Positions 2,101-59,521 of a stretch of 64,000 bases of DNA are shown here, in pieces (positions within the stretch are counted from its first letter, which is position 1; every line of letters begins with the position of its first letter). The position numbers and the translations under genes were made by a program. Below the pieces are notes generated by a model. That model searched no databases. It was not told the DNA's origin and saw nothing but the letters and a program-made list of their open reading frames with translations. The DNA is from an uncultured Prevotella sp. (GTDB lineage Bacteria; Bacteroidota; Bacteroidia; Bacteroidales; Bacteroidaceae): positions 23,219 to 87,218 of the forward strand of contig CAMNCJ010000007.1 in the NCBI GenBank assembly GCA_946534285.1, in the 5' to 3' direction.

Positions 2101-2102
2101 TG

Positions 2103-3239
2103 CTATAAACTCAACAAATGTTCAATCCCCACTATTGCGGTTTCTCGATTTTGTTCAGAACGAAGTGTATGAAGTGTAAACATTAAATCTCGCTCATTGT
2201 ATCTGAACAACCATTTATTATAAGCACCAGGGAAAAAGCGCCTTAATCTCAACTTCAACTGAGATGGACTTTTAAATGCTTTTAAGTAAAGTCGGAGTTC
2301 TTTGTCACAAAAACTTTGTAATTGTTTGAACACATAATCATCGTCTAAAACCTTTTTTGAACGTTCACAGAAAGCTGATAAATCTTGATTCGATGCATAA
2401 CGAACGAAAAGGTTGTCAACTGATTCCACCAAATGTTTATTGATACGAATCTGTCCGTTTTCAATTATCAATTCTACAATCAATCCTGTATCCGTCAAAC
2501 CGGGGGCAAAGTTTTTTAACAAGAAGTCACCTTGTCCATAAAGCAAATAAGAGCCTTTATAATATTCTTCACAGCCAACACAATGTGTATGTTGAGCAAG
2601 AATCATATCCGCTCCATTATCTGCCATTCTGTGGAAACGTTTTTTCATTTCTGGTGATGGGTAAGGAAATTTTTCTATTCCACCATGATAGATTACAATC
2701 AAATAATCACATTCCGTTTTAAGTTGTTCTATCTCACGACAGACAATATATTCATCATATAACCATGCTCCTGCTTTATCTTTTGTTGGTTTGTTATACA
2801 TAGTCTCACTAACATTATAAAAACCAATGCGCAGTCCGCCTACTTTCTTTATAAGAGAATGGTCAATTACTCTCTCGTTCTTTCCTGCACCGATATAGTT
2901 GATACCCGCTTCATCAAGCGTTTGCATGGTGTCAATCAGGCCTTGATGACCTCCGTCAGTGGCATGGTTGTTGGCAAGCATACAATAGTCAACTCCTAGT
3001 TTTTTGTATGCCTCAACAGCCGAGGTTGTTGCCACCTTAACCGGACCTGTTTTTCTGCATTTGTCAGGATGGTCGGTCAAGGCTCCTTCAAGATTGCAGA
3101 CACAGAAATCTGCTCCAGAGAACAATTGCGTTATTTCTTTTCCGAACAATGAGTCAATGTCACCCTTTGAAAAGAATGAAACATTTTGTTCGGTAGGGAA
3201 AAAGTCGCCGACAATGATTATGTTATGGTTTTGTTCCAT
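2103..3239 (-). CDS. CapA/PGA_cap family metallophosphoesterase
   Basis: GDF, NLEG, LANNHATD, YHGG.E, QHTH, YGQGDFL motifs. Confidence 0.9.
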   Translation of the reverse strand: MEQNHNIIIVGDFFPTEQNVSFFSKGDIDSLFGKEITQLFSGADFCVCNLEGALTDHPDKCRKTGPVKVATTSAVEAYKKLGVDYCMLANNHATDGGHQGLIDTMQTLDEAGINYIGAGKNERVIDHSLIKKVGGLRIGFYNVSETMYNKPTKDKAGAWLYDEYIVCREIEQLKTECDYLIVIYHGGIEKFPYPSPEMKKRFHRMADNGADMILAQHTHCVGCEEYYKGSYLLYGQGDFLLKNFAPGLTDTGLIVELIIENGQIRINKHLVESVDNLFVRYASNQDLSAFCERSKKVLDDDYVFKQLQSFCDKELRLYLKAFKSPSQLKLRLRRFFPGAYNKWLFRYNERDLMFTLHTLRSEQNRETAIVGIEHLLSL

Positions 3240-3240
3240 A

Positions 3241-3825
3241 TTATTTTTTCAATAGGGTGCGCATTAAAGCTTGGAACTTGGATACCTGAAATTTTATCCA
3301 GCAGTAAAATGATGAATATGGACAACCATTTAACCATTTTGCCATCACTACACTATAATGGTCTTTGCTGGATGCACGGAAGAAGCGGACTGGTTTATAA
3401 CCATTTTTTTTTGCAATTTCCTGACGATGAACATTTTTCGAATGTGTGTCAAACACAAGTGTCTTATAACCAAGGTCTCTCGCCAATTGTTCTCTTTTAC
3501 TCTCTAATAGTTTAAATATCCCTCTGCCAGAATACTCTGGTATTACAGCATCAAAACAAATGTATGCGTAAGGGCCTCTATTATACCAAGTCTTTCCAAT
3601 CTTGTCTCCTATCGCCGCCGTACCGATCAATCTTTTACCATCTAAAGCCACCAACACAACACCTTTTTCTCCAAGCGAATCCTTAATTCTCTCCACTGGC
3701 CATTGATAGTGAGCCATATTGATTCCTTTGGCTCTATTTTCAGCATGGGCTTCAAACAAACATTGCTTGATATCATCCCATGTAACCCAATCGGGTTTTA
3801 CCATTATTTGAATGTTGTCCGCCAT
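3241..3825 (-). CDS. GNAT family N-acyltransferase
   Basis: 194 aa; VIPEYSGRGIFKLL acetyl-CoA-binding motif A. Confidence 0.8.
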   Translation of the reverse strand: MADNIQIMVKPDWVTWDDIKQCLFEAHAENRAKGINMAHYQWPVERIKDSLGEKGVVLVALDGKRLIGTAAIGDKIGKTWYNRGPYAYICFDAVIPEYSGRGIFKLLESKREQLARDLGYKTLVFDTHSKNVHRQEIAKKNGYKPVRFFRASSKDHYSVVMAKWLNGCPYSSFYCWIKFQVSKFQALMRTLLKK

Positions 3826-3848
3826 TCTACATTCGCTTAATTAGCACT

Positions 3849-4925
3849 TCAATCAGGGAACCAAGTATTTGGCCTTGGCCAAAGTTCACGAATAATCCTC
3901 TCTGTATATTCGCCCATGCCTGACTTAAACGCCGATTGGCTCAAGCCTGGATTGGTGTTAAATTCAATAAGCACAGGTTCTCCATCTTCTTGGATGGCCA
4001 CATCCCAACCCACAAGGTTGAAGAAAGGAAGCCTCAAATGAAGACGTTTCACCATCTCAATGGCTTTGTCGTATGACGGCAATTGATAGCCTTCTAATAC
4101 TATACCCGTGTCGGTCTTGTCAACATTATCTGTGCTAAAACCGCCAAAAGCTTCTTTTCCTAGTCTACCTTCCTTGTCGATTGTAGTGCTGATTCCACCG
4201 GCGCATTGGTTGTCGACCACCGAACCATTACGTCCAATGCGAACCACTGAATAGATAATTAGCACCTCCATACCAGAACGATACGACAGTATTCGCATAG
4301 TATTCACAGAGGTAGGATTCAACGCAGCCATTCCTTCATGTTGCCGTACCCAATCCTGTACTAAGAAATCTTTCTTGTACTCCTTAAACAATTGAGCTAC
4401 AGTTTTCCCATTAAGGTCTGTTACACCATTATTAGCACTAAACATCTGTACTCCGTGTCCTTCCGACTGACGCGAAGGTTTGATAATAACCTTTTCCAAA
4501 TTTTGACAAAGAGAAACGGCTTCCTCTTCCGAGACGGGCTTCCCCTCAAAATAATAATAGCCATTCATGTTTTTCAGAATGGAATGAACGATGTTCTCTC
4601 CCGGAAATAGGAAGTCGCACATGTTTTTGTCACCGAAAGCACTCTGAAGACGGTGTTGGTTGGCTTTCGGTACAAGTTCACAATGATAAATGTTGTTGGG
4701 AACATACTCCTTGGTAAAGTACCCAGTGCGCGAATAGAAATACTCATGGCAATAGAGCGGCACCTTCTTACCAATCATATCCATGTAAAAGTCTTGTATT
4801 TCCTTTACTTGTTCTTTCGTAAGTTTGCGGTGATGCTCCAAGTCTTTAAAGTTCTTGGTAATGCGCACCTCCCATTTTTTCATCTCGCGTTTTTTGGCGA
4901 GGCGGTTCATTAATTTACCAAACAT
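3849..4925 (-). CDS. Sugar-transfer-associated ATP-grasp protein (ATPgrasp_ST-like)
   Basis: IIKPS...G.GV, LNPTSVNTMRI, VDNQCAGG, VGWDVAI...PVLIEFN. Confidence 0.88.
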   Translation of the reverse strand: MFGKLMNRLAKKREMKKWEVRITKNFKDLEHHRKLTKEQVKEIQDFYMDMIGKKVPLYCHEYFYSRTGYFTKEYVPNNIYHCELVPKANQHRLQSAFGDKNMCDFLFPGENIVHSILKNMNGYYYFEGKPVSEEEAVSLCQNLEKVIIKPSRQSEGHGVQMFSANNGVTDLNGKTVAQLFKEYKKDFLVQDWVRQHEGMAALNPTSVNTMRILSYRSGMEVLIIYSVVRIGRNGSVVDNQCAGGISTTIDKEGRLGKEAFGGFSTDNVDKTDTGIVLEGYQLPSYDKAIEMVKRLHLRLPFFNLVGWDVAIQEDGEPVLIEFNTNPGLSQSAFKSGMGEYTERIIRELWPRPNTWFPD

Positions 4926-4937
4926 ATCAATGGTTTA

Positions 4938-6092
4938 TTAGTCTCTTTTATTTAATTTTATCGTCCACATCAGCAGATTCCGCCTTGCGTCATGGGTGAG
5001 CAGACGCAATAGTGAATAGTCATTGGTTTTATTCTTTCTTCTGATTTTGTTTTTCCAACAAGTAAGCAATAACTTGGTACATACTTTCAACGATTGAGGA
5101 TGTATCGTCTTGTCGATAATTGTCATCTCCTTCATACCCAAATCATTACATATCTTTTTCAGATATGAGTTGTATTTATCCTCGTTGGTCAAATACTGGC
5201 AAATGGTTTCATTGTGCTTGTTGCGTGCTTCGTCATGGTCGATTTCGATTCCAACATTATCCACATTCCTTGTATTCACCACATCCCAAGTCAGTTTCCC
5301 ACCGGCAATGGTCATCACCACGCAAAGGCCTTCGTACCAATGGGGACGATTGGTGGCGCGATAGTCATAGCCTTCTTTGCTGTTGAACAGGAAGTTGCCC
5401 AGACTATAGAAAATAGGCTTTCCATTGTATTCTTCCCATCCTTGCGGACAATGCGGATGGGCGGCAATTACACCGTCAGCACCATAGTCAATGAAATCGC
5501 GATAACGTGCTACGGTTTCAGGCATTGGGATATCAATATATTCAATACCATCGTGTGGCAGAATGAAAAGATAATCCACTTCCTTTTTTGCCTCTATGAT
5601 GACATGGTTCACTTTGAGGTCGTTAATGTAGGCGCAACCCAATCCATCGTGTTTGGTAATATCGTCAAAAACGCCTGTATAAGCAGCAAACGACAAGCCA
5701 AGGAATCCTATCTTTATCCCATCCACTTCCACTATCTTTGGTTTATAGGCTTCTTCGTATGAACCTGCGCCAAAGGCCTCATCACCCAATGCAGCTTTAG
5801 TTTTCTTAAAACCTTCGTCACCCCAATCGAAAGCGTGGTTATTAGCCAAAGAAAAAACATCGAAACCAAGTCCACGCAAAAAGTCGGGAACATCATCGTG
5901 TTGAAAAAAGCGTTCTCTGCCTTGTGGAGGCATTTTCATTTCAGGTTTCAAAGGCACCTCAAAATTTACCACTTTCACATCACAAGAATTTACCAGACTC
6001 TTCAAGTCATCTGATACACAAATTTTTGAAGTCGAGGGTTTGGAGCAGAAATCGCCTGCAAAAAAAAGACGTATGTTATTCATGAGCGACAA
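4938..6092 (-). CDS. CapA/PGA_cap family metallophosphoesterase
   Basis: AGDF, NFE.PL, LANNHAFDWG, HDG.EY, AHPH, FYSLGNFLF. Confidence 0.9.
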   Translation of the reverse strand: MSLMNNIRLFFAGDFCSKPSTSKICVSDDLKSLVNSCDVKVVNFEVPLKPEMKMPPQGRERFFQHDDVPDFLRGLGFDVFSLANNHAFDWGDEGFKKTKAALGDEAFGAGSYEEAYKPKIVEVDGIKIGFLGLSFAAYTGVFDDITKHDGLGCAYINDLKVNHVIIEAKKEVDYLFILPHDGIEYIDIPMPETVARYRDFIDYGADGVIAAHPHCPQGWEEYNGKPIFYSLGNFLFNSKEGYDYRATNRPHWYEGLCVVMTIAGGKLTWDVVNTRNVDNVGIEIDHDEARNKHNETICQYLTNEDKYNSYLKKICNDLGMKEMTIIDKTIHPQSLKVCTKLLLTCWKNKIRRKNKTNDYSLLRLLTHDARRNLLMWTIKLNKRD

Positions 6093-7245
6093 TCTTTTTC
6101 AAGTGGTTCAGCTTCAAATTGTTGGGCTGACGATACATCTTATATGTCTTTCCTGTTTTCAGCCATGCAAAATAGCAGTCACGAATCTCATTTCTCCACC
6201 CACGACGAATGAAATATTGCCCTGTCCTGTCCCAAAAGTCATTCACCTCAATGACAACAGGCCCTTCATCCGTAATGGCAATATCCCAACCTGCAGCCTT
6301 GCAGTACGGGAATGCTTGTTGGAATTTCTTAACTTCTTCCTTTATCGCTTGCCAATTCTCAATAACAACACCATTTAATTGGCTATCGCTGTCGGGGTGC
6401 TTCTCAATGTCCTTTATATTACGCCAGCCGTCGTATTGGATAGCGTACTTGATTTCACCTGTTTCTGTATCCACACACACGTCCACATTACCACCTCCAC
6501 CTGCGTTGTCGACACACTTGCCAGCACGTCCAATTTTAATAAAAGTGGCAATCACCCGTGCCGAACCATCAGGCCACAATGTGGTCATGAATCTTACTGT
6601 ATTGACCGAAGACTCATTGAATGCAGCAAATTGCTTGGTCTGCTTTACAACACTTTCAAAAATCAAAGCATCCGTACCTAAAACCGATGACAGCAAAAGG
6701 GTTTCACCATCAAAACGGGTCATAATGGCATCGTTATCTCGATATTCAATTGCATTAATAACCCACACATTATCGCCATGTGAACTTTCTGTGGTTTTAA
6801 TAACACAGGATTGCACATTTTTTTGTTTAAGGATGTACAACACGCTATTCAAATCATGTGCATTTTCTGTACAATCAGCATAGCGTGCCTCGGGTTGATA
6901 ATAGCAGTACAATTTCGACTTACGCACACCTGTGTTTTCCAGCAACTTATGGGCCATATATTTGTTTCGGGCAAGCGAGTAGTATTTGATTGGGTTGAGA
7001 TAATCCAAATAAAACCGTTGCTCGTTCAGGCCAAGAAAAGAATTGCGAAACTCCTCATCTCGCTTTTCGAACTCAAACTTGTAATACTCATCTCTTGTGA
7101 GACCTTTGGTCTTATACAATTGTTTGTAATCGCGCACAATAGCATGCCGGACATTTGTTGAATTGTCAATAGTTGCCGCCCATTGCAATAGCGAACGATA
7201 CTCCTGTATTGGTCGGATAAAACGCTTCAATAAATTTTTAAGCAT
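6076..7245 (-). CDS. Sugar-transfer-associated ATP-grasp protein (ATPgrasp_ST-like)
   Basis: FNESSVNTVRF, VDNAGGGG, AGWDIAIT..GPVVIEVN. Confidence 0.88.
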   Translation of the reverse strand: MLKNLLKRFIRPIQEYRSLLQWAATIDNSTNVRHAIVRDYKQLYKTKGLTRDEYYKFEFEKRDEEFRNSFLGLNEQRFYLDYLNPIKYYSLARNKYMAHKLLENTGVRKSKLYCYYQPEARYADCTENAHDLNSVLYILKQKNVQSCVIKTTESSHGDNVWVINAIEYRDNDAIMTRFDGETLLLSSVLGTDALIFESVVKQTKQFAAFNESSVNTVRFMTTLWPDGSARVIATFIKIGRAGKCVDNAGGGGNVDVCVDTETGEIKYAIQYDGWRNIKDIEKHPDSDSQLNGVVIENWQAIKEEVKKFQQAFPYCKAAGWDIAITDEGPVVIEVNDFWDRTGQYFIRRGWRNEIRDCYFAWLKTGKTYKMYRQPNNLKLNHLKKIVAHE

Positions 7246-7257
7246 AAGAGAATATTA

Positions 7258-8010
7258 TTATAGTCCTGTTCTTGGATAGTTGTATTTTTTATCTAATTCT
7301 TTCTCCTGTTTTTTATCATAAATTCGGCGCAACCCTGTCGCTTTCACGGTAGCAGGACAGCCCGCCAACATACTATAAGAAGGTTCATTTGAAAAATCTT
7401 TATTGACCAAACTGTTAGAGGCGACAATAGTATTATCAGGAATTACGGCTCCTTTAGAGACTGTAGAACGATTACCCAGCCAGACACGGTTACCTATAAT
7501 AACTGGTGAAGAAAGAGTCTTTATTTCATTGTTGCGATTCAAAAGTTCTATATAATGGAAACTTGTATCATATATCTGACAATCCCAAGCTATTCGACAA
7601 GCATATCCGATTCTGATATGTTCAAAGCAGAAGATCTTTGTGTTTGAACCAATCTTTGTTATGTTGGTTTCTTCTGGTTTAGAATTGATTTCCAGCAATG
7701 CATTCTTGGCAACAAGAATGTAACTGCCCCTAAAAATTCGAACAGGTGCATCAAATACTATAGTTCCATTAATTGTCCAAATATTGTTTTGAATACTGGT
7801 GTCAACATATATATCCTTAGGACCAACCTTAATCTTACCCGTATAAATAGATCCTTTTATTTCCACTTTCCCTTTCAACGAGCGGAAATCCGTCTTACCG
7901 TAAAACAAAATTGGCAGTTTTCTTGCTTGCTTAAAAGGCAGCATCTTGAAATTGAACTCGATGGTCTTTATCAAGTTGCACTTCAACAGTTCTTTTATCT
8001 TCTTTCTCAT
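7258..8010 (-). CDS. Hexapeptide-repeat (left-handed beta-helix) acyltransferase
   Basis: PVIIGNRVWLGNRSTVSKGAVIPDNTIVASNSLV. Confidence 0.85.
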   Translation of the reverse strand: MRKKIKELLKCNLIKTIEFNFKMLPFKQARKLPILFYGKTDFRSLKGKVEIKGSIYTGKIKVGPKDIYVDTSIQNNIWTINGTIVFDAPVRIFRGSYILVAKNALLEINSKPEETNITKIGSNTKIFCFEHIRIGYACRIAWDCQIYDTSFHYIELLNRNNEIKTLSSPVIIGNRVWLGNRSTVSKGAVIPDNTIVASNSLVNKDFSNEPSYSMLAGCPATVKATGLRRIYDKKQEKELDKKYNYPRTGL

Positions 8011-8015
8011 ATTAC

Positions 8016-9077
8016 CTAATGTAATAATCTGTTCTTTATCTTCCTGACAATTTGCAGGGACTTGTATTTTATCAACAACCGTCTTTTTGCCAAGTCTTTT
8101 TCCATCTTTCTCGGCAAATCACATTGCGAGACAATGTTTTCGGGGGATGAATGTACGTATCCAATGCCCGGTATTGTCTTTTCTCCATCAAGATTCAGTG
8201 TAACATAACATCCATAACGCGAAATCGGGTTCCACACCTGCCGAATGGGTGCCTCTATCGGGAACGGATAGCCGACAACATCTTTTATCTTCGACAAGTC
8301 CTCGCTTAACTCAGGATACCAGATTGGACGGGGAGGTTGCATATAAAAGTCTGGGAACAGGAAATTCCCCATACTGAAACATACGGGCTTGCCTTTGAGC
8401 TTCAAGAAAGGCTGAATCTGATGAGTATGGCTGCCCAAAATAGCATCAGCACCTGCTTCCACCATCTTTTTTGCCATAGAAACACATTCGGGCAACGGCT
8501 CATAGCGATATTCCCTGCCCCAATGGGGCATGACAATCACTTTGTCGTATTTTTGTTTGGCTTGCTTTATATCTTTAGTAACTCTATCAATATCCAACGG
8601 ATTGATTCCAGCCTTGTTTGCCTCAGCCAGTTCCACGTATCCCAAATATTTATTACCATACATACAATAGGCGAGAATCGCCACACTCAATCCGTCTTTT
8701 TCAATAACGGCAGGTCGAGAAGCTTCTTCTATATTCACACCAGCACCGCAATGCTTAATCCCGTTTTTCTCCAAAATGCTGATGGTGTTTTTAAGGCCTT
8801 CTTCTCCCAAATCCCATACATGATTATTGGCAAGTGAAACCACATCGAAACCCATCTCCTTCACTCTGAAAAAATCCTCGTTTCTCGCATATATTATATT
8901 TTGCCTTCCTGCAATTTTTACAGAATCATAAGGAAGGTTCGTGCCAATGGCCGATTCGAGTGTGCCAATCCTGAAATCGAAATCCTTCAAGAAAGATTTT
9001 AATTCTGCCGTAATATAATTGTCTTGATAAGGCAAAACGCCTCCAGGCATTATATCTCCACAAAAAAACAAATTCAT
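8016..9077 (-). CDS. CapA/PGA_cap family metallophosphoesterase
   Basis: CGDIM, TLES, LANNHVWDLG, PHWG.EY, GSHTH, FSMGNFLF. Confidence 0.9.
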   Translation of the reverse strand: MNLFFCGDIMPGGVLPYQDNYITAELKSFLKDFDFRIGTLESAIGTNLPYDSVKIAGRQNIIYARNEDFFRVKEMGFDVVSLANNHVWDLGEEGLKNTISILEKNGIKHCGAGVNIEEASRPAVIEKDGLSVAILAYCMYGNKYLGYVELAEANKAGINPLDIDRVTKDIKQAKQKYDKVIVMPHWGREYRYEPLPECVSMAKKMVEAGADAILGSHTHQIQPFLKLKGKPVCFSMGNFLFPDFYMQPPRPIWYPELSEDLSKIKDVVGYPFPIEAPIRQVWNPISRYGCYVTLNLDGEKTIPGIGYVHSSPENIVSQCDLPRKMEKDLAKRRLLIKYKSLQIVRKIKNRLLH

Positions 9078-10576
9078 GCTACAATTCTTTTATTGTCCTT
9101 TTTATCCCAAAACTTGAGTTTTGCAGGTATGATGCTTAAAAAATAGGTATATGATTCCGGCTTAAAGATTAAAGACCAGCCCATATATATCATCAAATAA
9201 ATGGCTGTTTTAAGTGCTCCATCAAGATACATATTCAAGTGCAGATAATGTATGCCGAAGAAAGCGATACCAGCCGCCAACAACGAAGCAACTCCCACAG
9301 GTAGAATATCCAACAATTGTTGCGTCCATTTATACCCAATATGCTTAGATACTAACGATATGTTTACAAAATACGAAAACCATGCATTAATGATAACACC
9401 AACCAGCAGTCCTTTCATTCCGAATACTAATAAGCCTCCTACCATAGCACATAGTCCTATTATCCGTTTAACAATGGTCCAAACCAGCATCGTTTTACTT
9501 TTTCCAATTGCTGAAATAGTCTGCAAATTTACTGATTGTAAACAAGCAGCAAGTCCAGCAACACATAACACCTGAAAATACGGAATACTTTGTATCCATC
9601 TATCTGAATATAATAGAATAAATAAAGGTTTAGCAGTCAACATGAGAATAAACATCATCGGAAATGTAATATAAGAAATTGTGGTCGTCAACCTTTTGAT
9701 CATATTAATCATTAATGTCTTGTTGTCTTGCACTTCAGCATACAGTGGATAAGTCACTTGTGTCATTATTGATGAAATTGTATGAGAAGCTAGCCTTTCC
9801 GTCCCTAAAGCCTTTGAATAATACCCTAAAGTTGATGGATTATAAACTTTGCCTATAACTAACCCAGTCAACTGAGTTGAAAAACGTTCAACTAAATGCG
9901 TCAAAAACATATAAAATCCAAAACCAAACAGTTCCTGGAAAGACTTCCAAGAGAAGACCCATTGCGGCCGCCATTTCACGTAGAACCAAAAAACCAGGGA
10001 AGGAATAGCGCCACCAATAAGGGTTTGAGCAACCAATGACCACACACCAAATCCATGGTAAGCCATAATAATTGTAACAGAAAGAGCAATGATAGCTGTT
10101 CCAACAGATACGATGGAAAGTAATTTGAAATTGAGTTTTTTCTTTAACTGGTTACGTTGTATGACATTAAGGGCATATATAAAGAGAATTAAGCCCTCAA
10201 CACGTAGAACATCACATAGCAAAGGAATTTTGTAAAAGCGAGATATAGCAGGAGCACTAACAAACAAAATGATATACATGAAAGCAGCCATACCGATATT
10301 CCACCAAAAGATGGTAGAATAATCCTCTTGTGTAGGTCTCTTTTTTTGTATCAATGCAGAACCAAAACCGCCATCAATAAAAGCATCGGCCAAGACAATA
10401 AAAATGGAAAGCATTCCGATACAACCATAGTCGTATGGAGTAAGCAAGCGTGCCAAAATTATACCCGAGATGAACTGTATGCCCATTCTCGAGTACTTTT
10501 GCAAGGCGGTCCATACCATGCCTGCTGCGGCTTTCTGCTTTAGATTGTTTTGTGGCATTTTACTTACCTTCTGCAA
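9074..10576 (-). CDS. wzx: Wzx-type polysaccharide flippase
   Basis: 500 aa, many hydrophobic segments; LARLLTPYDYG, D.GFGSALIQKK...EDYSTIFWWN typical of the WzxC-like family. Confidence 0.9.
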   Translation of the reverse strand: MQKVSKMPQNNLKQKAAAGMVWTALQKYSRMGIQFISGIILARLLTPYDYGCIGMLSIFIVLADAFIDGGFGSALIQKKRPTQEDYSTIFWWNIGMAAFMYIILFVSAPAISRFYKIPLLCDVLRVEGLILFIYALNVIQRNQLKKKLNFKLLSIVSVGTAIIALSVTIIMAYHGFGVWSLVAQTLIGGAIPSLVFWFYVKWRPQWVFSWKSFQELFGFGFYMFLTHLVERFSTQLTGLVIGKVYNPSTLGYYSKALGTERLASHTISSIMTQVTYPLYAEVQDNKTLMINMIKRLTTTISYITFPMMFILMLTAKPLFILLYSDRWIQSIPYFQVLCVAGLAACLQSVNLQTISAIGKSKTMLVWTIVKRIIGLCAMVGGLLVFGMKGLLVGVIINAWFSYFVNISLVSKHIGYKWTQQLLDILPVGVASLLAAGIAFFGIHYLHLNMYLDGALKTAIYLMIYMGWSLIFKPESYTYFLSIIPAKLKFWDKKDNKRIVA

Positions 10577-11771
10577 AATCTTTCAAATAGGCAAATCTCG
10601 ATGTCAAATGGCCTTCCTTCAAAATCATGGAACGATCAATCACATCGGAATGTTCACCCTTAAGCATAGGCTCAAACACATGTTTGGTCAACATTTCACC
10701 AAAATAGGCACTGGTATCAATGGCCAAGGCGTTCGGGCATGTGTCCACAGCCATTACTGTGATGTTGTCGGGCGAAGAGAATGCTGGCTCTTCTTTCTTA
10801 CTGACAGGATTGAAATCATAGTAGGGTTCAGCATGCGTTGCAGGACGGACTGTTGATTTAACACTTCCACAAATGTCGCATGTGATATCTCCTATCATTT
10901 TAATAGGTAAATCGTATTTGGTGAAATCGCCTTGTTCAAGATAAACGGGAGCCTTGGGATCCCAATAGTGACATGGGATATAAATATCAGTATGTTTCGC
11001 AAACTTTATGAAATCACTTACGTATTCCTCTGGATGCTCACGGAAATGTTTTCTAACATACGGTTTTCCATCCTTGTGCTTGACAAGTTCTTCTGGCGAC
11101 GCACGATGAAAAGAAATATAATCGATAGGTTCATTAGACAAGAACTCATCCATACTTAGTTCCTCTGCCCGACAACATTCCCTCATCACATAGGTTGCTC
11201 CTTGCGCCACCCTACCATTTCCTGTTATCAGTATCTTCACTTTAGGTAATTTTACAACAGTCAGTATGTTTCTCAATTCTGACAATGTAAATGATTTCGT
11301 GGGTTTCGGCAAAATATCCTTGCCTTCCCTCAGGAAATATCCCCGAAGCGTATAATAAACCCCAACGACTCCAGCCCACCAACCAAAGGCACAAACACGC
11401 TCATTATTCTCATCTACAAGATATTCGTAATCTGAGAATGTTATGCTTTTATTCATGAAAGCCTGCAACAAAGGGCGGTTGTATTCCTGCATCTTGGCAA
11501 TATGGCCGAAGAAGAAATAGTGTTTGTTCGGTATCAGACTTTCAATCTTAGCTTCCTTGATACCAAAGAGAACATCAGCATCGCTGACATCATTCACCAC
11601 CTCTACGCCTTCCGCCCGATATTCGTCATCTGAGTATGCGCGGACATCGCTTGTCTGCACCATAATCTGGTGCTGGGGAAATTGTCTGTTCAACTCAGCC
11701 ACCTGCTTGGGGACAAGTGCCACACGGTTATCAACCGGGGTCTTGGTTTCTTTGATTAGAACTATTTTCAT
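10560..11771 (-). CDS. Lysine-ketoglutarate reductase / saccharopine dehydrogenase-like NAD(P) oxidoreductase (AlaDh/PNT fold)
   Basis: ETK...DNRVAL.P, FGIKE, YFFFGHIAK.Q.YN..LL, DYEYLVD....RV.AFG..AG, TGNGRVAQGA, DITCD..GS. Confidence 0.8.
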   Translation of the reverse strand: MKIVLIKETKTPVDNRVALVPKQVAELNRQFPQHQIMVQTSDVRAYSDDEYRAEGVEVVNDVSDADVLFGIKEAKIESLIPNKHYFFFGHIAKMQEYNRPLLQAFMNKSITFSDYEYLVDENNERVCAFGWWAGVVGVYYTLRGYFLREGKDILPKPTKSFTLSELRNILTVVKLPKVKILITGNGRVAQGATYVMRECCRAEELSMDEFLSNEPIDYISFHRASPEELVKHKDGKPYVRKHFREHPEEYVSDFIKFAKHTDIYIPCHYWDPKAPVYLEQGDFTKYDLPIKMIGDITCDICGSVKSTVRPATHAEPYYDFNPVSKKEEPAFSSPDNITVMAVDTCPNALAIDTSAYFGEMLTKHVFEPMLKGEHSDVIDRSMILKEGHLTSRFAYLKDFAEGK

Positions 11772-11777
11772 TGTATT

Positions 11778-12188
11778 CTACTTTATTTTGCTATACTCCC
11801 TTAGAAGTGTTGAAGAAATACCTTCCGTTCTGGGAACAACAACAACTTCCTTACCATGGTTCTTGCACCATTCAACAGCGCTTTGGAATCCAGCATGGTT
11901 TTGGTCAGGGCCTTTGGCAAAAACGTCGAAATCTATCCTTTGAATATCTTTGTCGATATCTTTATAAATCACAACCTCATCAACATACTTAATGGCACTT
12001 ACCATATACATCCTTTCGTCTGTACTATATACCATCTGAGTACCTGGCTTGTACTTGAGAATGCAATCTCCATCCTGGACAGCCACAATCAAATGGTCAC
12101 CAAGATCTTTAGCATGCTTGAACAAAAGAATATGCCCGATATGAAGCATGTCGTAGACCCCTACTGTTAGCACTTTCTTCATACTCAT
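11778..12188 (-). CDS. Cytidylyltransferase (TagD/glycerol-3-phosphate CT-like), first gene of operon
   Basis: G.YDMLHIGH (HxGH), YVDEV and RTEGISST motifs; 136 aa. Confidence 0.88.
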   Translation of the reverse strand: MSMKKVLTVGVYDMLHIGHILLFKHAKDLGDHLIVAVQDGDCILKYKPGTQMVYSTDERMYMVSAIKYVDEVVIYKDIDKDIQRIDFDVFAKGPDQNHAGFQSAVEWCKNHGKEVVVVPRTEGISSTLLREYSKIK

Positions 12189-12674
12189 ATCACTTAATTG
12201 TTATTTGAGAAAAACGGACCACTATTTTCACAAACCGCAGTCCTAAAAATAGAAACTTGATTATTAATATAAAATATAGATTTCTTTGAGATACTTACAA
12301 TTCATTTCTTTGACAGTGTATGTCTGCTTGAATGGAATTCTGACTGGAGGCTACGTCTTGCAGGGATATAATACTTTTCTTCCCTCCCAGTATGTAGAAC
12401 TTGGAGAGAAAAACAATCTGTGGCAGCAACGCCCACTAATCCCTAAAAGCCAGACTGCCTCCGCTTCAGGATACTCTTTAAGGAGCATCCGCAGATGGTT
12501 CTGCTTCTGATGAGAAAAGCAAATGGAGGTAATACGCCCACCCACTGTATGATTCCGAAAAAACGCTATTGTGCCACCTATTTCCCAGAAAACAAAGTGG
12601 ATTGGCACATATCACTGTTATTTTATATTAATTATAATCAATCTCCAAAATACTGCTTTTCTATTTTTGCGCTG

Positions 12675-12705
12675 CAAAATTATAAAAAAAGAATGAGAAG
12701 ACAAA
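12675..12705 (-). promoter_or_regulatory. Bacteroidota sigma-A promoter for the leftward ATP-grasp/CapA operon
   Basis: Minus strand TTTG (12702-12705), 19-bp spacer, TAATTTTG (12675-12682). Confidence 0.65.
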
Positions 12706-12845
12706 ATTTTTCAACTAATATCTTATTGAGAATCCTATAAGTCATCCTATATAAACGTGAGTTCGGGGTAAGAGAATGAGAAACAGGAAGAACTCACAGA
12801 CGGGTTTCCTTGACTAACAGAACAAGGAGAACCCTATCCCCGTAT

Positions 12846-13000
12846 CCCTGTGCTCTCTGTGGTATGGTAACATGCATTCATATATTTTTGTTTTAACCAC
12901 CGAGAACACCGAGTTCACAGAGTTTTTATTATTATTATAATATTTCTCTGTGTCCTCTGTGCACTCTGTGGTTGTTAATTTGTATATTTATTATTCATCT
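12846..13000. repeat. Palindromic 9-nt-period repeat (CACAGAGnn/CTCGGTGnn); inverted copy of 15709-15861
   Basis: AACCACCGAG-AACACCGAG-TTCACAGAG, AT-rich loop, CTCTGTGTC-CTCTGTGCA-CTCTGTGGTT. Confidence 0.9.
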
Positions 13001-13059
13001 AACTCTTGAGTTCTATACCTCTTATTATTTCGTGGCCAAAAATGCCATTTTTCGCCATT

Positions 13060-13480
13060 AAACGACATGCTGACGATTTGAAAAATTGCGACAAAAGCCT
13101 GTTCACATTTTCATTCAAAATAGAAATGGTTTTTGGGCGAAACGAGCATTGAAAACGAGAAAATGTAAAGAATCACTACCATGAGGCACATTTCTTCACG
13201 CAAAACCTATGCTTTTACATCTCAAAAGATATGGTTTTACCCTTCAAAAACTATGGTTTCACTGCCCAAAAACTATGGTTTTGCGACACAAAACCTATGC
13301 TTTTTTCAGCAGTAATGTGATTTCTTCGTTCAAGGGGAAACCGTTTTCATTGTAATCAATTATTAGTCAACAACTTGCAGGAAGTGCTTCAAAACTCGTG
13401 TATTTCGCCCCAGTTGCACGTTTGTCATCAGCACCGCCCGTATGAGAGGCTTTCATTCGGATTTTTCATGACAATATCAT
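13060..13480 (+). repeat. Dispersed ~420-bp non-coding element, copy 1, containing five 22-bp direct repeats (13201-13306)
   Basis: Colinear with the reverse complement of 59650-60071 (AAACGACATGCTGA...GAAAATGTAAAGA...CAAAACCTATGCTTTT...TGATTTCTTCGTT...CGTATGAGAG...ATGACAAT). Confidence 0.88.
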
Positions 13481-13612
13481 GCATAGGGAATGTTCTGTCC
13501 GCTGAGTACAGAACCCTTGGTCCAATAAGGCTATCGCGAAAATGAAACTGAATGTTTTCACTACCTTGTCAAGAAATATCAAATAATATTTTTATAAGTA
13601 GAAAAAAATGCG

Positions 13613-13620
13613 TATTTTTG
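13613..13620 (+). promoter_or_regulatory. -7 promoter box upstream of the GHMP kinase
   Basis: TATTTTTG about 50 bp before the ATG. Confidence 0.55.
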
Positions 13621-13671
13621 CAGAAAATATGATGAAAACAGGAATTTGTCAACATTATAGCATTAAAAAAT

Positions 13672-14898
13672 ATGACACAAATGAATGATTTGTTCCAGGC
13701 ATACCGTACGTTTTTCGGCACGGGCGATGCACTTTACCGCATGTTCTCACCCTACCGTATCTGCCCCCTCGGGGCACATGTGGACCATCAGCATGGATGG
13801 GTGACGGGCTTTGCCTTCGACAGCGGCATCGAGTTCTTGTTCTCTGAGACAGAAACGGGCAAGGTGGAAATGGCTTCCCTGTCGTTTGAAGGACTGATGA
13901 CATTTAATGTGCAGCGGCCCATTGACGAGCAACAGAGCAACTGGGGAGACTATTTGCGCGGTGCCGCATGGGCATTGCAGCAGGATTTCCAACTGAAGAA
14001 AGGGGTGCGCGGTATCGTGAAAGGCTCCATGCCTATCGGCGGTCTGTCGTCATCGGCAGCGCTGCTGTGCGGTTTCGTGATGGCACTGGCAAAGGTGAAC
14101 CATCTGGAACTGGACAAGATGCAAGTGATTCACTATGCATCGCGCGCAGAAAGGGAATACGTGGGACTGAACAATGGTATTCTGGACCAGGCTTGCGTGG
14201 TGCTCTGCGAAGCAGACAAACTGCTGTTTCTCGACACAAAGAGTCAGCAATACGAACTGATTCCTTTCGCTTCGGAGAAGGGGAAAGACGGAACGAGCGG
14301 TGACGGAACGAGCGTGCTGCCATTCAAATTCGGCATTTTTTTCAGCGGCGTGACACGCAAACTGACAGGAACGGACTACAACCTGCGGGTATCGGAATGC
14401 AAAACAGCCGCTTGGATCATGCAGGCCTATGAGGATATTCCACTGAAAGAACTGCAAGACACACGGCTGCGTGATGTGGAGGAGACCGTTTTCCTGAAAC
14501 ATGAGAAGGATATGCCGGAGCGTTTTGCACGCAGAGCACGCCATTTCTATACGGAATGTGACCGCGTGAAAGACGGGGTGAAAGCGTGGAAGGCTGGCGA
14601 CATCGAGCGTTTCGGACAGTTTGTCTTCGAGAGTTGCGAGAGTTCGATGAACAACTACGAATGTGGTTCTCCTGAACTGATTGCTCTTTATAAGATCATG
14701 AGGGAGACGGACGGCATCTACGGAGGACGTTTCTCGGGCGCAGGATTCAAGGGTGCCTGCATTGCCTTGGTAGATCCCAGCAAGGAAGAGAGTATCAAAC
14801 AGCATGTGGAGGAGGAATACCTGAAGCAATATCCTCAATATAAGGATAGTTTCCATGCGTATTTCTGTAGTCCGGCCCACGGAGTGGAATTTCTATAA
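13672..14898 (+). CDS. GHMP sugar kinase, galacturonokinase-like (galactokinase family)
   Basis: PYRICPLGAHVDHQ, GGLSSSAA, GLNNGILDQ, DYNLRVSEC, NYECGSPEL, GGRFSGAGFKG. Confidence 0.85.
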   Translation: MTQMNDLFQAYRTFFGTGDALYRMFSPYRICPLGAHVDHQHGWVTGFAFDSGIEFLFSETETGKVEMASLSFEGLMTFNVQRPIDEQQSNWGDYLRGAAWALQQDFQLKKGVRGIVKGSMPIGGLSSSAALLCGFVMALAKVNHLELDKMQVIHYASRAEREYVGLNNGILDQACVVLCEADKLLFLDTKSQQYELIPFASEKGKDGTSGDGTSVLPFKFGIFFSGVTRKLTGTDYNLRVSECKTAAWIMQAYEDIPLKELQDTRLRDVEETVFLKHEKDMPERFARRARHFYTECDRVKDGVKAWKAGDIERFGQFVFESCESSMNNYECGSPELIALYKIMRETDGIYGGRFSGAGFKGACIALVDPSKEESIKQHVEEEYLKQYPQYKDSFHAYFCSPAHGVEFL

Positions 14899-14908
14899 CT
14901 CACTTATC

Positions 14909-15718
14909 ATGAAGAATATTGTCATTGCAGCAGGCTATGCCACCCGCTTGGGAGAACTGACAAAGAACTTTCCCAAGCCGCTACTCAGAATCGGCAACAC
15001 CACCATCCTCGACCGTTTGCTTGATGACGTGGATGGTATCGACTCGATTGACGAACATGTGATTGTGACAAACCATAAGTTTGCTCCGATCTTTGAAAAA
15101 TGGGCAGAGGAAAGGAAATGTGCCAAAAAGCCCATCCGCATCATTGACGACGGAACAACATCGAACGAGACACGACTCGGAGCCGTGCGCGACTTGCTGC
15201 TCGCCATCACGGGGGATCCTGACGGAAACACATCTGCCGAACTGGAATATGAGGATATCATGGTGCTGGCGGCTGATAACATCCTGAATTTCTCACTACA
15301 GGGATTTGTTGACTATGCAGAGGAAAAACAATCATCTGTGATTATGTGTCACCATGAGCCGGAACTAAAGAAACTACAACGCACAGGGGTTATCGCCGTA
15401 GATGAGAATATGAGGGTGACAGAGATGCAGGAGAAACCAGAAAAGCCTGTGAGCCACTGGGCTGTGCCGCCTTTCTATATCTACAAAAAGAAAGATCTGC
15501 CACTGATTGCTGACTGTATGAACCACGGATGCGGATTCGATGCTCCGGGAAACCTGGCACATTACCTCGTGGGAAAAACAACGATTCATGCATGGGAAAT
15601 GCCTGGTACGCGATTCGACATCGGATCACTGGACAGTTACCGCGAGGCACAACGAGTTTATGGTGGTGAATTGTGTTTTCCAAACCACAGTGTGCACTTA
15701 GAACATGGAGATGAATAA
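14909..15718 (+). CDS. Sugar-1-phosphate nucleotidyltransferase (NTP_transferase)
   Basis: AAGYATRL..LTKNFPKPLL, EKP, RFDIGSLDSY; the ATG at 14909 is preferred over the track start. Confidence 0.9.
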   Translation: MKNIVIAAGYATRLGELTKNFPKPLLRIGNTTILDRLLDDVDGIDSIDEHVIVTNHKFAPIFEKWAEERKCAKKPIRIIDDGTTSNETRLGAVRDLLLAITGDPDGNTSAELEYEDIMVLAADNILNFSLQGFVDYAEEKQSSVIMCHHEPELKKLQRTGVIAVDENMRVTEMQEKPEKPVSHWAVPPFYIYKKKDLPLIADCMNHGCGFDAPGNLAHYLVGKTTIHAWEMPGTRFDIGSLDSYREAQRVYGGELCFPNHSVHLEHGDE

Positions 15719-15971
15719 TAAATATACAAATTAACAACCACAGAGAGCACAGAGGACACAGAGAATAATTAAATAAAAACTCGGTGATCTCCGTGTACTC
15801 GGTGGTTAGAATAAAACAATGTAGGACATGAATCTATGTTAATACCACAGAGTGCACGGAGGACACAGAGATAGATTTAATACGGAATGATAGGACCACG
15901 CGGGTGGATAAAGACAAAAAACTCGGTGTCCTCGGTGGTTAATAATAAAATAACTCCGTGGACTCGGTGGT
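15709..15971. repeat. Cluster of 9-nt-period palindromic repeats upstream of the GxxExxY gene
   Basis: ACCACAGAG-AGCACAGAG-GACACAGAG...CTCGGTGAT-CTCCGTGTA-CTCGGTGGTT; further arms at 15844-15870 and 15922-15971. Confidence 0.9.
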
Positions 15972-15988
15972 AAAAAAACAGATATGAT

Positions 15989-16354
15989 ATGAATGAGGAT
16001 CAAGAGACATATAATATAATAGGTGCGGCGATTGAGGTACATCGACAACTTGGACCGGGGTTTGTCGAGTTCGTCTACGCTGACGCATTAGAAATAGAGT
16101 TGAAACTGCGTGGAATTCCCTTCCAAAGAGAAGTAAGAATCCCTGTTGAATACAAAGGAAGCACACTGAAGCATGTTTATGTTGCTGACTTCATTTGTTA
16201 TGAACATGTTATCGTTGAGTTAAAAGCGGTGGAGAAAATTCTACCCGTACACGAAGCACAAATCATCAACTACCTGAAAGCGACGAACTATCACTGCGGT
16301 TTACTATTGAATTTCAGTGATATTGTTCTGCAAAAACGAAGATACGTTAACTGA
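15989..16354 (+). CDS. GxxExxY protein (PD-(D/E)XK nuclease fold)
   Basis: IIGAAIEVHRQLGPGFVEFVY (GxxExxY), ADFIC...VIVELKAV, HEAQIINYLKAT. Confidence 0.93.
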   Translation: MNEDQETYNIIGAAIEVHRQLGPGFVEFVYADALEIELKLRGIPFQREVRIPVEYKGSTLKHVYVADFICYEHVIVELKAVEKILPVHEAQIINYLKATNYHCGLLLNFSDIVLQKRRYVN

Positions 16355-16435
16355 GAAAAACGTTTTCTGAAAAACAACAGAGCGTAAAGATTAATCCAAA
16401 ATGGCTTCTGTAGTTGAGAAAGAACAAGTATTCAA

Positions 16436-16647
16436 ACAACCACAGAGAGCACGGAGATAGGGAATAATAAGAGGTATAGAAAACTGGGGGCAGATGAATA
16501 ATAAATTCTCGGTGAACTCGGTGATCTCGGTGATCTCGGTGATCTCGGTGATCTCGGTGGTTAATAATAAATAACTCCGTGGGGGATGAATAAAAATCTC
16601 GGTGATCTCGGTGATCTCGGTGGTTAATAATAAATAACTCTGTGGTT
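16436..16647. repeat. 9-nt tandem/palindromic repeats downstream of the GxxExxY gene
   Basis: CTCGGTGAT-type units x6 (16508-16561) and x3 (16598-16624); left arm CCACAGAGAGCACGGAG at 16440. Confidence 0.92.
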
Positions 16648-16681
16648 AGAAAATAAATTGAATAAATAGAGAAGTACAATT

Positions 16682-17722
16682 ATGAAAATCTTAGTTACTG
16701 GCGCAGCCGGATTCATCGGCTCGAAACTTATGTACATGCTCGCCCTTCGTGGTGATGATGTGGTAGGCATTGACAATATCAATGACTACTACAATCCTTT
16801 GCTCAAGTATGGCAGGTTGGCGGAGTGCGGTATAGAACAGAAAGACAACCATTTTGAATGGAATGTTCCTGTTCAGAGCAGTCTGTTTGCCAACTGCCGC
16901 TTTGTGAGAATGGCTATCGATGACAAGGAGTCACTCGACCGCTTATTTGAAAAAGAGCATTTCGACAAGGTGGTGAACCTCGCTGCACAGGCTGGTGTGC
17001 GCTATAGCATCACCAACCCTTACAGTTACTTACAAAGCAACTTGGTCGGGTTCCTCAACATTCTGGAAGCCTGCAGGAACAACCAGATTCGTCATCTGAT
17101 CTACGCCTCGTCGAGTTCTGTCTATGGCATGAATACCAAGGTGCCCTACAGTGAAGCAGACAAGGTGGACTCCCCCGTCAGCCTCTATGCCGCATCGAAA
17201 AAGAGCAACGAACTGATGGCGCATGCCTACTCGAAACTTTACGGATTCGCAACAACAGGACTGCGTTTCTTCACCGTCTATGGTCCATGGGGCCGTCCAG
17301 ACATGTCTCCCATGCTTTTTGCCTCCGCCATTTCCAAGGGAGAACCAATCAAAGTATTCAATCACGGAGACATGATTCGTGACTTCACCTATATCGATGA
17401 CATTGCTGAGGGTACGATTCATGTAATTGATCATCAGCCCGTTGCTGAAGAATGTCCCAACAACGTTCCTTACAAGGTGTATAATATCGGCTGTTCGAAT
17501 CCTGTAAAACTGATGGATTTTATCAGCGAGATAGAACAGGCTTATGGCAAGGAAGCCGAAAAAGTGTTTCTCCCCATGCAGCCGGGGGATGTTTATCAGA
17601 CCAATGCGAATACGGAACGTCTGGAAGAAGAGTGCGGTTACAAGCCACATTGGTCGCTGCATGACGGTATCCAGGAGTTTATGAAGTGGTATAAGAGCGA
17701 CAAAAACCCGCTCCGCCCATAG
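16682..17722 (+). CDS. NAD-dependent epimerase, UDP-glucuronate 4-epimerase family (Uge/Cap1J/WbnF-like)
   Basis: GAAGFIG, LAAQAGVRYS, YAASKKSNELMAH, RFFTVYGPWGRPDM, QPGDV. Confidence 0.9.
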   Translation: MKILVTGAAGFIGSKLMYMLALRGDDVVGIDNINDYYNPLLKYGRLAECGIEQKDNHFEWNVPVQSSLFANCRFVRMAIDDKESLDRLFEKEHFDKVVNLAAQAGVRYSITNPYSYLQSNLVGFLNILEACRNNQIRHLIYASSSSVYGMNTKVPYSEADKVDSPVSLYAASKKSNELMAHAYSKLYGFATTGLRFFTVYGPWGRPDMSPMLFASAISKGEPIKVFNHGDMIRDFTYIDDIAEGTIHVIDHQPVAEECPNNVPYKVYNIGCSNPVKLMDFISEIEQAYGKEAEKVFLPMQPGDVYQTNANTERLEEECGYKPHWSLHDGIQEFMKWYKSDKNPLRP

Positions 17723-17740
17723 CACTCAAGCAACAATAGT

Positions 17741-17807
17741 AATCAAAACAGAAGCAGGCAACCATCGTCTTAAATCGTATTCGATGGCTGCCTGTTACTG
17801 TTTGATT
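17741..17807. terminator. Long hairpin between the convergent epimerase and phosphatase genes (probable bidirectional terminator)
   Basis: AATCAAAACAG..GCAGGCAACCATCG ... CGATGGCTGCCTGTTACTGTTTGATT. Confidence 0.6.
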
Positions 17808-52298: not shown

Positions 52299-52350
52299 TC
52301 TTTTGTTAATTTTCCCTTGTCACCTAAGTTAATCATGATATTTAGCGATG

Positions 52351-52382
52351 CAAATATATAACAAAAAAAAATATCAGCCAAA
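52351..52382 (-). promoter_or_regulatory. Promoter for wcaJ overlapping the upstream terminator
   Basis: Minus strand TTTG (52379-52382), 20-bp spacer containing a T9 tract, TATATTTG (52351-52358). Confidence 0.55.
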
Positions 52383-52399
52383 TTTTCGGCTGATATTTT
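52363..52399 (-). terminator. Intrinsic terminator ending the Wzy operon
   Basis: AAAATATCAGCC/GGCTGATATTTT stem with a T-tract on the minus strand. Confidence 0.7.
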
Positions 52400-52409
52400 C
52401 AATATTGTC

Positions 52410-53552: not shown

Positions 53553-53607
53553 TCACACCTAATCCGAAACCGCTCCTAACAGATGTCCCGATGCATTACT
53601 GACAAGA

Positions 53608-57316: not shown

Positions 57317-57326
57317 ATTATCTGTA

Positions 57327-59041: not shown

Positions 59042-59287
59042 GTATTCTGTAACTATCAACTTGTGGAAGTGTTATGCGATATCACATTCCAGCAGGTGTT
59101 CTGCTTCATTCATGAAAAACGGACATAACGGTATCTGTATGATTATTACGGACATAACTACCCAATCCCACAAGTTGTGGAATCTCGGTGAAACGGGTAT
59201 CACGCACTTGAGTGATTAGGTATTTCCGCAGATGAGCATCCTATAAATAAATGCTCGCAGAATCGCACAATTACCGCTATGCATCTG

Positions 59288-59520: not shown

Positions 59521-59521
59521 A

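Follow-up and report, generated by a model that had tools for sequence, protein, structure and literature searches.

A candidate galacturonic acid salvage module between two polysaccharide loci of an uncultured Prevotella

Introduction

What use does a gut or rumen Prevotella with a true galactokinase gene elsewhere in its genome have for a second galactokinase-like protein, encoded next to a sugar-1-phosphate nucleotidyltransferase and, farther downstream, a uridine diphosphate (UDP)-glucuronate 4-epimerase? The question is raised by a 64,000-nt stretch of contig CAMNCJ010000007.1 (hereafter the window, to whose positions all coordinates refer) from the assembly of an uncultured Prevotella sp. 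(GCA_946534285.1), in which four plus-strand genes, encoding the kinase, the transferase, a GxxExxY protein and the epimerase, sit between two divergently oriented polysaccharide loci. In plants, free D-galacturonic acid (GalA) is converted to GalA-1-phosphate (GalA-1-P) by galacturonokinase (GalAK, At3g10700, EC 2.7.1.44) and then to UDP-GalA by the UDP-sugar pyrophosphorylase (USP) SLOPPY (At5g52560) (PMC8636097). Our comparisons make it probable that the Prevotella kinase, transferase and epimerase form a salvage module for free GalA, which would pass through GalA-1-P to UDP-GalA, interconvertible with UDP-glucuronic acid (UDP-GlcA), and so supply surface polysaccharides. The four genes are as follows.

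13672-14898, plus strand: GalAK-family GHMP sugar-1-kinase of 408 aa, predicted galacturonokinase (PF00288, PF08544, PF10509)
14909-15718, plus strand: sugar-1-phosphate nucleotidyltransferase of 269 aa, predicted UDP-GalA pyrophosphorylase (PF00483)
15989-16354, plus strand: GxxExxY PD-(D/E)XK protein of 121 aa, an insertion outside the pathway (PF13366, 144 bits; TIGR04256, 149 bits)
16682-17722, plus strand: UDP-glucuronate 4-epimerase of 346 aa (PF01370, 185 bits)

The kinase belongs to the galacturonokinase family

The kinase has a GHMP fold (PF00288, 57 bits; PF08544, 35 bits) with the ATP motif PIGGLSSSAAL at residues 120-130. A preliminary description of this DNA had quoted several motif blocks from it and likened them to plant galacturonokinase, had held that it is not a galactokinase (GalK), and had expected automated annotation to call it one nonetheless. 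All of the quoted blocks are present in the open reading frame (ORF) at 13672-14898: PYRICPLGAHVDHQ occupies residues 27-40, in place of the galactokinase GRVNLIGEHTDY, and is followed by GLNNGILDQ (165-173), YNLRVSEC (236-243), NYECG (328-332) and RFSGAGFKG (353-361). When the kinase is aligned to Pyrococcus furiosus GalK (1S4E), SPGRVNLIGEHTDY faces SPYRICPLGAHVDHQ, and the Glu of GalK is replaced by Ala35, the substitution that the description had read from the letters GAH. Of 50 family members, 49 carry this Ala, as do the proteins of Camellia, Tetracentron and Spirogloea. The kinase retains the GalK residues R29, D38, D172 and Y236, and has C31, P32, A35, H39 and Q40 in common with plant GalAK. 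Going by the Lactococcus lactis and P. furiosus GalK structures, we take Arg29 and Asp172 to be the catalytic pair and Asp38 and Tyr236 to be the contacts to the galacto-configured ring. Mutagenesis of Arabidopsis GalAK by Yang et al. in 2009 reportedly traced specificity to Ala41, Tyr250 and Ala368. Ala35, Tyr236 and Ala357 of the kinase align with Ala44, Tyr263 and Ala381 of the Camellia protein, which are presumably the same three Arabidopsis positions, a mapping that we draw from the length offset between the two plant proteins.

An exhaustive search of a library of 1.84 billion representative proteins with the kinase returned a family of 573 clusters at E<1e-30. Of the full-length proteins within the top 150 matches, nearly all contain R[IV]CPLGAH[VI]DHQ. 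The Camellia sinensis galacturonokinase was matched at E=4.8e-61 (223 bits; 39% identity in the library search and 36% in a MAFFT alignment), a value that indicates homology and not chance. Among the named matches, the Camellia sinensis and Tetracentron proteins are called 'galacturonokinase', and JGI labels one bacterial homologue 'galactokinase/galacturonokinase'. At the 31 alignment columns that tell plant GalAK from GalK, the kinase agrees with the plant proteins at 16 and with GalK at 7. Within residues 28-40 it is of plant type at all seven discriminating columns (six exactly, the seventh with V for I); conversely, YRICPLGAHVDHQ does not match GRxNLIGEHxDY, all seven of these columns differing from GalK. 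The likeness to plant galacturonokinase therefore stood up as a family signature common to both, although the relationship is one of family and not of sister groups.

An alternative explanation would be that the kinase is just a second galactokinase and that the transferase makes UDP-galactose or UDP-glucose. NCBI and JGI do call its homologues 'galactokinase', just as the preliminary description had anticipated; the galK models (E=1e-58 to 1e-63) and PF10509 both match it. However, its scores fall below every curated NCBIfam galK cut-off (TIGR00131, 196 vs. 226.65; PRK03817, 215 vs. 443; PRK05322, 211 vs. 385), and the galactokinase signature is missing. A true galK lies on a different contig of the same genome (296 bits) and its product is only 28% identical to the module kinase. 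In a maximum-likelihood tree of 97 proteins, moreover, the GalK clade is set apart with 100/100 support. The recurrent neighbors of the kinase, described below, are uronate enzymes and not galT or galE. We thus agree that the kinase is not GalK, and regard a second galactokinase as very unlikely.

In the same tree, the module kinase and its Prevotella homologues fall in a clade of 28 motif-bearing proteins (97/97 support). The plant and streptophyte-alga GalAK proteins (P0186, P0230, P0195) nest within bacterial diversity, together with P0180, P0223 and P0142, which suggests from the tree topology that plant GalAK may have been acquired from bacteria, or the reverse. Two further proteins (P0216 and P0253) are intermediate in form, keeping the GalK Glu alongside a GalAK-type DHQ (RLC[IL]LGEHVDHQ), and they make up a 100/100 clade of their own between GalK and the GAH groups. 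Outside the arrangements described below, one family member stands alone, while a kinase of a different subclade, without a transferase, shares an operon (L096:2186-4967) with genes for UxaC, a cupin, an Ldh_2 dehydrogenase and an IclR regulator, and may represent a catabolic use of the kinase family.

The nucleotidyltransferase and the epimerase

The kinase gene ends with a TAA at 14896-14898 and the transferase gene starts with an ATG at 14909. These coordinates confirm the 10-bp spacer given in the preliminary description, as does the ORF itself for the blocks VTNHK, IIDDGTTSNETRLGAVRDLLLAI and DIMVLAADN that had been quoted from it. An in-frame ATG at 14855, given in the ORF list, is not used by the homologues of the transferase, all of which begin MKNIVIAAGY. 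The protein matches PF00483 over its full length (83.6 bits, residues 2-249) and has the N-terminal GxGTR-type loop of that superfamily, and AAGYATRL, PKPLL, DDGxxxN..RxGA, AADN, EKP, PPFY, DAPG and DIG are invariant or nearly so in its family. No NCBIfam equivalog was reached, whether GalU, RmlA, AglF, GlgC, ManC, MurU or any other; the best score was 75 bits for AglF, the cut-off of which is 400. The UDPGP domain PF01704, which is that of the plant USP/SLOPPY type, was not matched either, the transferase giving only PF00483, PF12804 and a weak IspD match. Among solved structures, the best matches to the family profile score about 80 bits. The lack of an equivalog and the distance of the solved relatives together place the transferase in an uncharacterized PF00483 subfamily. 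It is a large one: its profile has >7,900 protein matches, which are abundant in Lachnospiraceae and Oscillospiraceae, and whose public names include 'nucleotidyltransferase family protein' and 'glucose-1-phosphate thymidylyltransferase'.

The epimerase, an extended short-chain dehydrogenase/reductase, is closest among solved structures to Klebsiella 5U4Q (380 bits), followed by the Bacillus cereus UDP-GlcA 4-epimerase BcUGAepi (6ZL6/6ZLA, 147 bits), an enzyme with established biochemistry. In BcUGAepi the carboxylate of the substrate is bound by T126, S127, S128 and T178 (PMC7984243). The corresponding positions of the Prevotella protein hold S-S-S and T, and the decarboxylase-type Glu is absent. 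Its motifs include GAAGFIGS (the GxxGxxG motif), YAASK (the YxxxK motif), ASSSSVYG and FFTVYGP, the last two of which cover the carboxylate-binding positions. The epimerase gene is co-directional with the other two, as the preliminary description had stated without mentioning that 963 bp, filled by the GxxExxY gene and repeats with a 9-nt period, separate it from the transferase gene.

Linkage of the three genes across genomes

Evidence that the three proteins work together comes from other genomes. We compared the best 80 genome loci with relatives of the kinase, which are 51-90% identical to it and nearly all labelled Bacteroidales. The transferase was found in 72/80 of these loci and the epimerase (47-73% identity) in 54/80, with both present in 49/80. 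At least nine gene orders occur, including kinase-transferase-epimerase (31 loci), kinase-epimerase-transferase (7), epimerase-kinase-transferase (5), and epimerase and transferase divergent from the kinase (3). The proposal that the genes are co-conserved thus holds across Bacteroidales in spite of the shuffled order, and linkage that survives rearrangement is strong evidence of functional coupling. In a census of all neighboring ORFs, the sole other recurrent neighbor was ugd, encoding UDP-glucose 6-dehydrogenase, in 12/80 loci. Kinases 51-77% identical to that of the window also occur on contigs labelled Staphylococcus, Clostridiales, Acetatifactor, Anaerovoracaceae, Acutalibacteraceae and Lachnospiraceae (L014, L018, L041, L051, L069, L071), which are either mis-binned contigs of metagenome-assembled genomes or the products of recent horizontal transfer.

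Outside Bacteroidales, kinases about 39-40% identical to that of the window have directly behind them a transferase of about 230-260 aa, the two genes mostly overlapping by 4 bp. Such pairs occur in candidate division KSB1, on two unassigned metagenome contigs and with a fourth, diverged family member, and their transferases are orthologous to the one in the module (33-43% identity). In a reciprocal search that started from transferases labelled Oscillospiraceae or of unknown origin, the upstream gene encoded a GalK-like GHMP kinase, and these pairs adjoin or end sets of polysaccharide genes.

Gene fusions add to this picture. A protein search widened to other lengths revealed >15 clusters, of 580-615 aa, in which the transferase is fused to an epimerase of the short-chain dehydrogenase/reductase (SDR) type. 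In the genome of a Xylanibacter ruminicola isolate, a capsular polysaccharide (CPS) operon ends with the kinase gene immediately followed by such a fusion, whose SDR half shares 50% identity with the module epimerase. Fusion of the two implies that the product of the transferase is the substrate of the epimerase. In other proteins (P0289, P0293 and P0294) the transferase is fused to an aldose-1-epimerase, or mutarotase, and one mutarotase fusion gene (L091:571-2187) has a 4-bp overlap with the gene for a GalAK-like kinase. Such a fusion points to a pathway that begins with a free reducing sugar whose anomers must interconvert. No fusion of the transferase to a GHMP kinase was found among the proteins of 372-1185 aa returned by the same widened search.

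Putative promoter, repeats and surroundings of the module

The kinase gene is preceded by a putative promoter motif and a long non-coding element, and the kinase and transferase genes are bracketed by inverted repeats.

13613-13620, plus strand: TATTTTTG, read directly from the sequence, a match to the -7 promoter box TAnnTTTG that lies 52 bp ahead of the kinase ATG
13060-13480, plus strand: non-coding upstream element of about 420 bp, found by pairwise alignment, that contains a phased array of five 22-bp repeats (about 13201-13306)
12886-13000, no strand assigned: left arm of an inverted repeat (9-nt-period repeat element) flanking the kinase-transferase cassette
15709-15816, no strand assigned: right arm of the inverted repeat, its start overlapping the final 10 bases of the transferase gene (which ends at 15718)

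TAnnTTTG is the consensus of the Bacteroidetes -7 promoter box. The element of about 420 bp, whose phased repeats are AAAAnCTATGGTTTT-like, has a second copy at 59650-60071 on the minus strand, co-oriented with and upstream of the polysaccharide locus at 50919-59059, which encodes an initiating transferase and three glycosyltransferases. In an alignment of 13040-13680 with 59450-60090 the mean column identity is 80%, and the likeness is concentrated in the element. This suggests that the element may be a regulatory leader common to the module and a CPS operon, which would then share regulation. A scan for sigma-70 promoters and terminators performed no better than on shuffled sequence, and an Rfam scan of 12200-17800 gave nothing relevant, with one chance match to mir-137 (E=0.05).

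The arms of the inverted repeat are 95% complementary over 63 nt (12938-13000 and 15709-15771) and 87% complementary between 12886-12930 and 15772-15816. Arrays of 9-nt-period repeats of the CTCGGTGAT and ACCACAGAG types surround the GxxExxY gene (15709-16680), and with the inverted copy upstream of the kinase (12886-13000) the element brackets the kinase-transferase pair. By tblastn, the GxxExxY gene lies within the locus in only 5/80 related loci; one relative, with 90% identity (L003), has the same order of kinase, transferase and GxxExxY genes. Most relatives keep a compact, ancestral arrangement of kinase, transferase and epimerase, so that the GxxExxY gene and its repeats look like an insertion. 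Such features could also mean that the cassette is a recently mobilized or decaying passenger between repeats, with no present role in this strain. The highly complementary arms that flank the kinase-transferase pair, the GxxExxY/repeat insertion between the pair and the epimerase, and the patchy occurrence of the module within the genus would all fit a passenger. Against this, the three ORFs are intact, with all of the family-invariant residues listed for the kinase and transferase and all of the residues checked in the epimerase in place; the 90%-identical relative maintains the same layout; and the kinase is preceded by a motif like the -7 box and by the CPS-type upstream element. We consider it extremely unlikely that the cassette is a mere passenger.

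Both sides of the module are occupied by genes for surface polymers. To the left, on the minus strand, lie genes for ATP-grasp, CapA-like, flippase and cytidylyltransferase proteins, and to the right genes for CpsB, a Wzc-like kinase and Wza, with kdsA and kdsD beyond them. The surface-polymer locus at 904-12188 (minus strand) encodes four ATP-grasp ligases, three PGA_cap (CapA-like) proteins, a GNAT protein, a hexapeptide acyltransferase, the flippase, a protein with an AlaDH/PNT-N domain and the cytidylyltransferase; no glycosyltransferase was detected in it. The second polysaccharide locus, at 50919-59059 (minus strand), encodes three glycosyltransferases (WecG-family, GT4 and DXD) in addition to a Bac_transf initiating enzyme and an NTP_transf_5 protein, and also includes two ORFs (56063-57316 and 58097-59059) without a Pfam match.

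A predicted route from galacturonic acid to surface polysaccharides

Taken together, the family of the kinase, the partners with which its gene travels and the fusions lead us to propose the following route. With ATP, the kinase would convert alpha-D-GalA to GalA-1-P by phosphorylation at the anomeric hydroxyl, with Arg29 and Asp172 serving in catalysis, Asp38 and Tyr236 reading the ring, and Ala35, within the PLGAHxDHQ pocket specific to the family, standing where GalK has the Glu for the 6-hydroxyl. The transferase would then combine the sugar-1-phosphate with a nucleoside triphosphate, most likely uridine triphosphate (UTP), to give UDP-GalA. The epimerase would interconvert UDP-GalA and UDP-GlcA, joining salvage to the de novo branch in which UDP-glucose is oxidized to UDP-GlcA by Ugd, encoded elsewhere, and the UDP-uronates would be drawn into surface-polysaccharide synthesis. 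It is plausible that the adjoining polysaccharide loci use the product. What the comparisons show are the identities of the genes, the families to which they belong, their co-conservation and the fusions; the sugar, the nucleotide, co-transcription and the recipient glycan are predictions.

The organism's own breakdown of pectin would be the source of GalA. Genes for UxaC, for nine GH28 proteins and for a Ugd-type dehydrogenase are present in the host genome, so that the host releases and catabolizes GalA and is also capable of de novo synthesis of UDP-GlcA; the kinase-transferase branch supplements the de novo route and is not the sole way to UDP-GlcA. A Leloir-like catabolic shunt for GalA was also considered and rejected, given that the genome has the standard UxaC route and no step from UDP-GlcA to central metabolism.

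Which sugar and which nucleotide?

Several findings weigh against this route, or against parts of it. Identity to orthologues of the one characterized family member is only 36-39%. The module kinase and the plant clade are not sister groups, and the tree has a weak backbone, which places the relation of the kinase to plant GalAK at the level of family only. The position opposite the Arg of the plant GFRG motif is Lys360 in the kinase and Gly in 18 of 50 family members, arguing that the family has no universal carboxylate clamp. For the transferase, the solved relatives at about 80 bits span UTP-, dTTP- and GTP-dependent enzymes, and the nucleotide is thus not readable from homology. No epimerase lies near the pair in the KSB1 and Oscillospiraceae-labelled loci. 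In the window itself, there is no TAnnTTTG box directly upstream of the epimerase gene, and this, along with its separation from the pair by the GxxExxY gene and repeats, makes co-transcription of all three genes doubtful. Finally, the module is accessory: it was present in 1/401 genomes of an even sample of the phylum (that of the window alone), in 7/301 genomes of the order, in 68/301 genomes and 13/35 genera of the family, and in 4/17 genomes of the genus.

Some of these findings would also suit a genuine pair of anomeric kinase and nucleotide-sugar pyrophosphorylase that acts on another sugar, either D-glucuronic acid or a galacto-configured sugar that departs from galactose at C6 (L-arabinose, D-fucose or N-acetylgalactosaminuronic acid), and perhaps with a nucleotide other than UTP. 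In addition to the low identity to plant orthologues and the lack of a sister relationship, replacement of Glu by Ala removes the hydrogen-bond partner of O6, which we infer would also suit a 6-deoxy sugar or one without C6. Position 360 may be R, K, G or N, the pair occurs without the epimerase in several lineages, and the transferase has no equivalog match. Conversely, the sole recurrent neighbors of the pair are ugd and the UDP-GlcA 4-epimerase with its intact carboxylate-binding residues, fusions of the transferase with the epimerase occur in many lineages, and one family member adjoins UxaC, a hexuronate isomerase. Asp38 and Tyr236 are kept, which argues for a galacto over a gluco configuration if their roles are as we have assumed. 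The characterized plant enzyme with the same signature, furthermore, acts on GalA (PMC8636097). A different sugar is therefore possible but, in our judgment, unlikely, and GalA with UTP remains the assignment that we favor.

Implications

If GalA salvage is confirmed, the kinase would be the first bacterial galacturonokinase, and a first function would be assigned to a very large, unnamed subfamily of nucleotidyltransferases. The module would be the uronic acid counterpart of the fucose route of Fkp, tying pectin intake directly to the composition of the capsule, and systematic mis-annotation of its homologues as 'galactokinase' and 'glucose-1-phosphate thymidylyltransferase' could be corrected. 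There would be a practical benefit as well. According to researchers working on UDP-GlcA 4-epimerase, GalA-1-P has ceased to be sold and the plant GalA kinase proved too unstable for use (PMC7984243); with a robust bacterial kinase-transferase pair, UDP-GalA could be synthesized by two enzymes.

A broader reading, which we advance tentatively, is that the transferase may be the missing dedicated UDP-uronate pyrophosphorylase, of the same family as the N-terminal domain of the animal glucuronokinase fusions, and that the pair may be a self-contained module spread by horizontal transfer. Were this so, hundreds of gut, rumen and environmental bacteria would place dietary galacturonate intact into capsules or lipopolysaccharide, and their synthesis of surface glycans would depend in part on dietary pectin.

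Comparison with known systems

The preliminary description had known of no characterized bacterial example, and none was found in the searchable literature, although the JGI name mentioned above already includes galacturonokinase. In full-text literature, with few subscription journals covered, galacturonokinase was discussed only for plants and there was no mention of bacterial uronate salvage.

The module and GalK (EC 2.7.1.6, TIGR00131) have in common the fold, the ATP motif PIGGLSSSA, the catalytic Arg and Asp, and the Asp and Tyr that contact the ring. In contrast to GalK, the module kinase is without GRxNLIGEHxDY and lies in a separate clade, and it is accompanied by a pyrophosphorylase and a uronate epimerase instead of GalT and GalE.

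In zebrafish, DrGKUP is a glucuronokinase and putative UDP-GlcA pyrophosphorylase, the pyrophosphorylase activity of which was not demonstrable; the nearest relatives of its transferase domain are stand-alone bacterial transferases from Ruminococcus and Firmicutes (PMC3938481). The preliminary description had suggested that the transferase blocks may resemble the pyrophosphorylase half of such fish fusions. Like the module, DrGKUP brings together a uronate-1-kinase and a short nucleotidyltransferase of bacterial type, a likeness that we draw from the published description, and the transferase family of the module is similarly abundant in Lachnospiraceae and Oscillospiraceae. Unlike those of the module, its two domains are fused, and its kinase belongs to the GlcAK clade and not to that of GalAK. 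Neither the length-widened search nor a profile headed by a 538-aa fusion, the latter being filled by stand-alone bacterial transferases, returned eukaryotic proteins.

The plant GalAK/USP system resembles the module in the kinase family, with the PLGAHxDHQ signature and Ala for the GalK Glu, and in its two-step logic, with a link to UDP-GlcA by a GAE-type 4-epimerase (PMC8636097). The second step differs: in the module it would be carried out by a dedicated PF00483 transferase of about 245-270 aa, whereas plants use a large, promiscuous USP of the PF01704 type. The bacterial genes, moreover, have an operon-like arrangement and are at times fused to an epimerase or a mutarotase.

Fkp of Bacteroides fragilis also combines a GHMP anomeric kinase with a nucleotidyltransferase, and it places a sugar from the diet or host onto the surface glycans of Bacteroidales (PMC6468028, PMC8931616). 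However, Fkp is one bifunctional polypeptide that acts on L-fucose and makes a GDP-sugar, while the module has two genes, its kinase falls in another GHMP clade, and its predicted product is a UDP-uronate. It would thus be a functional analogue of the Fkp system rather than a member of it.

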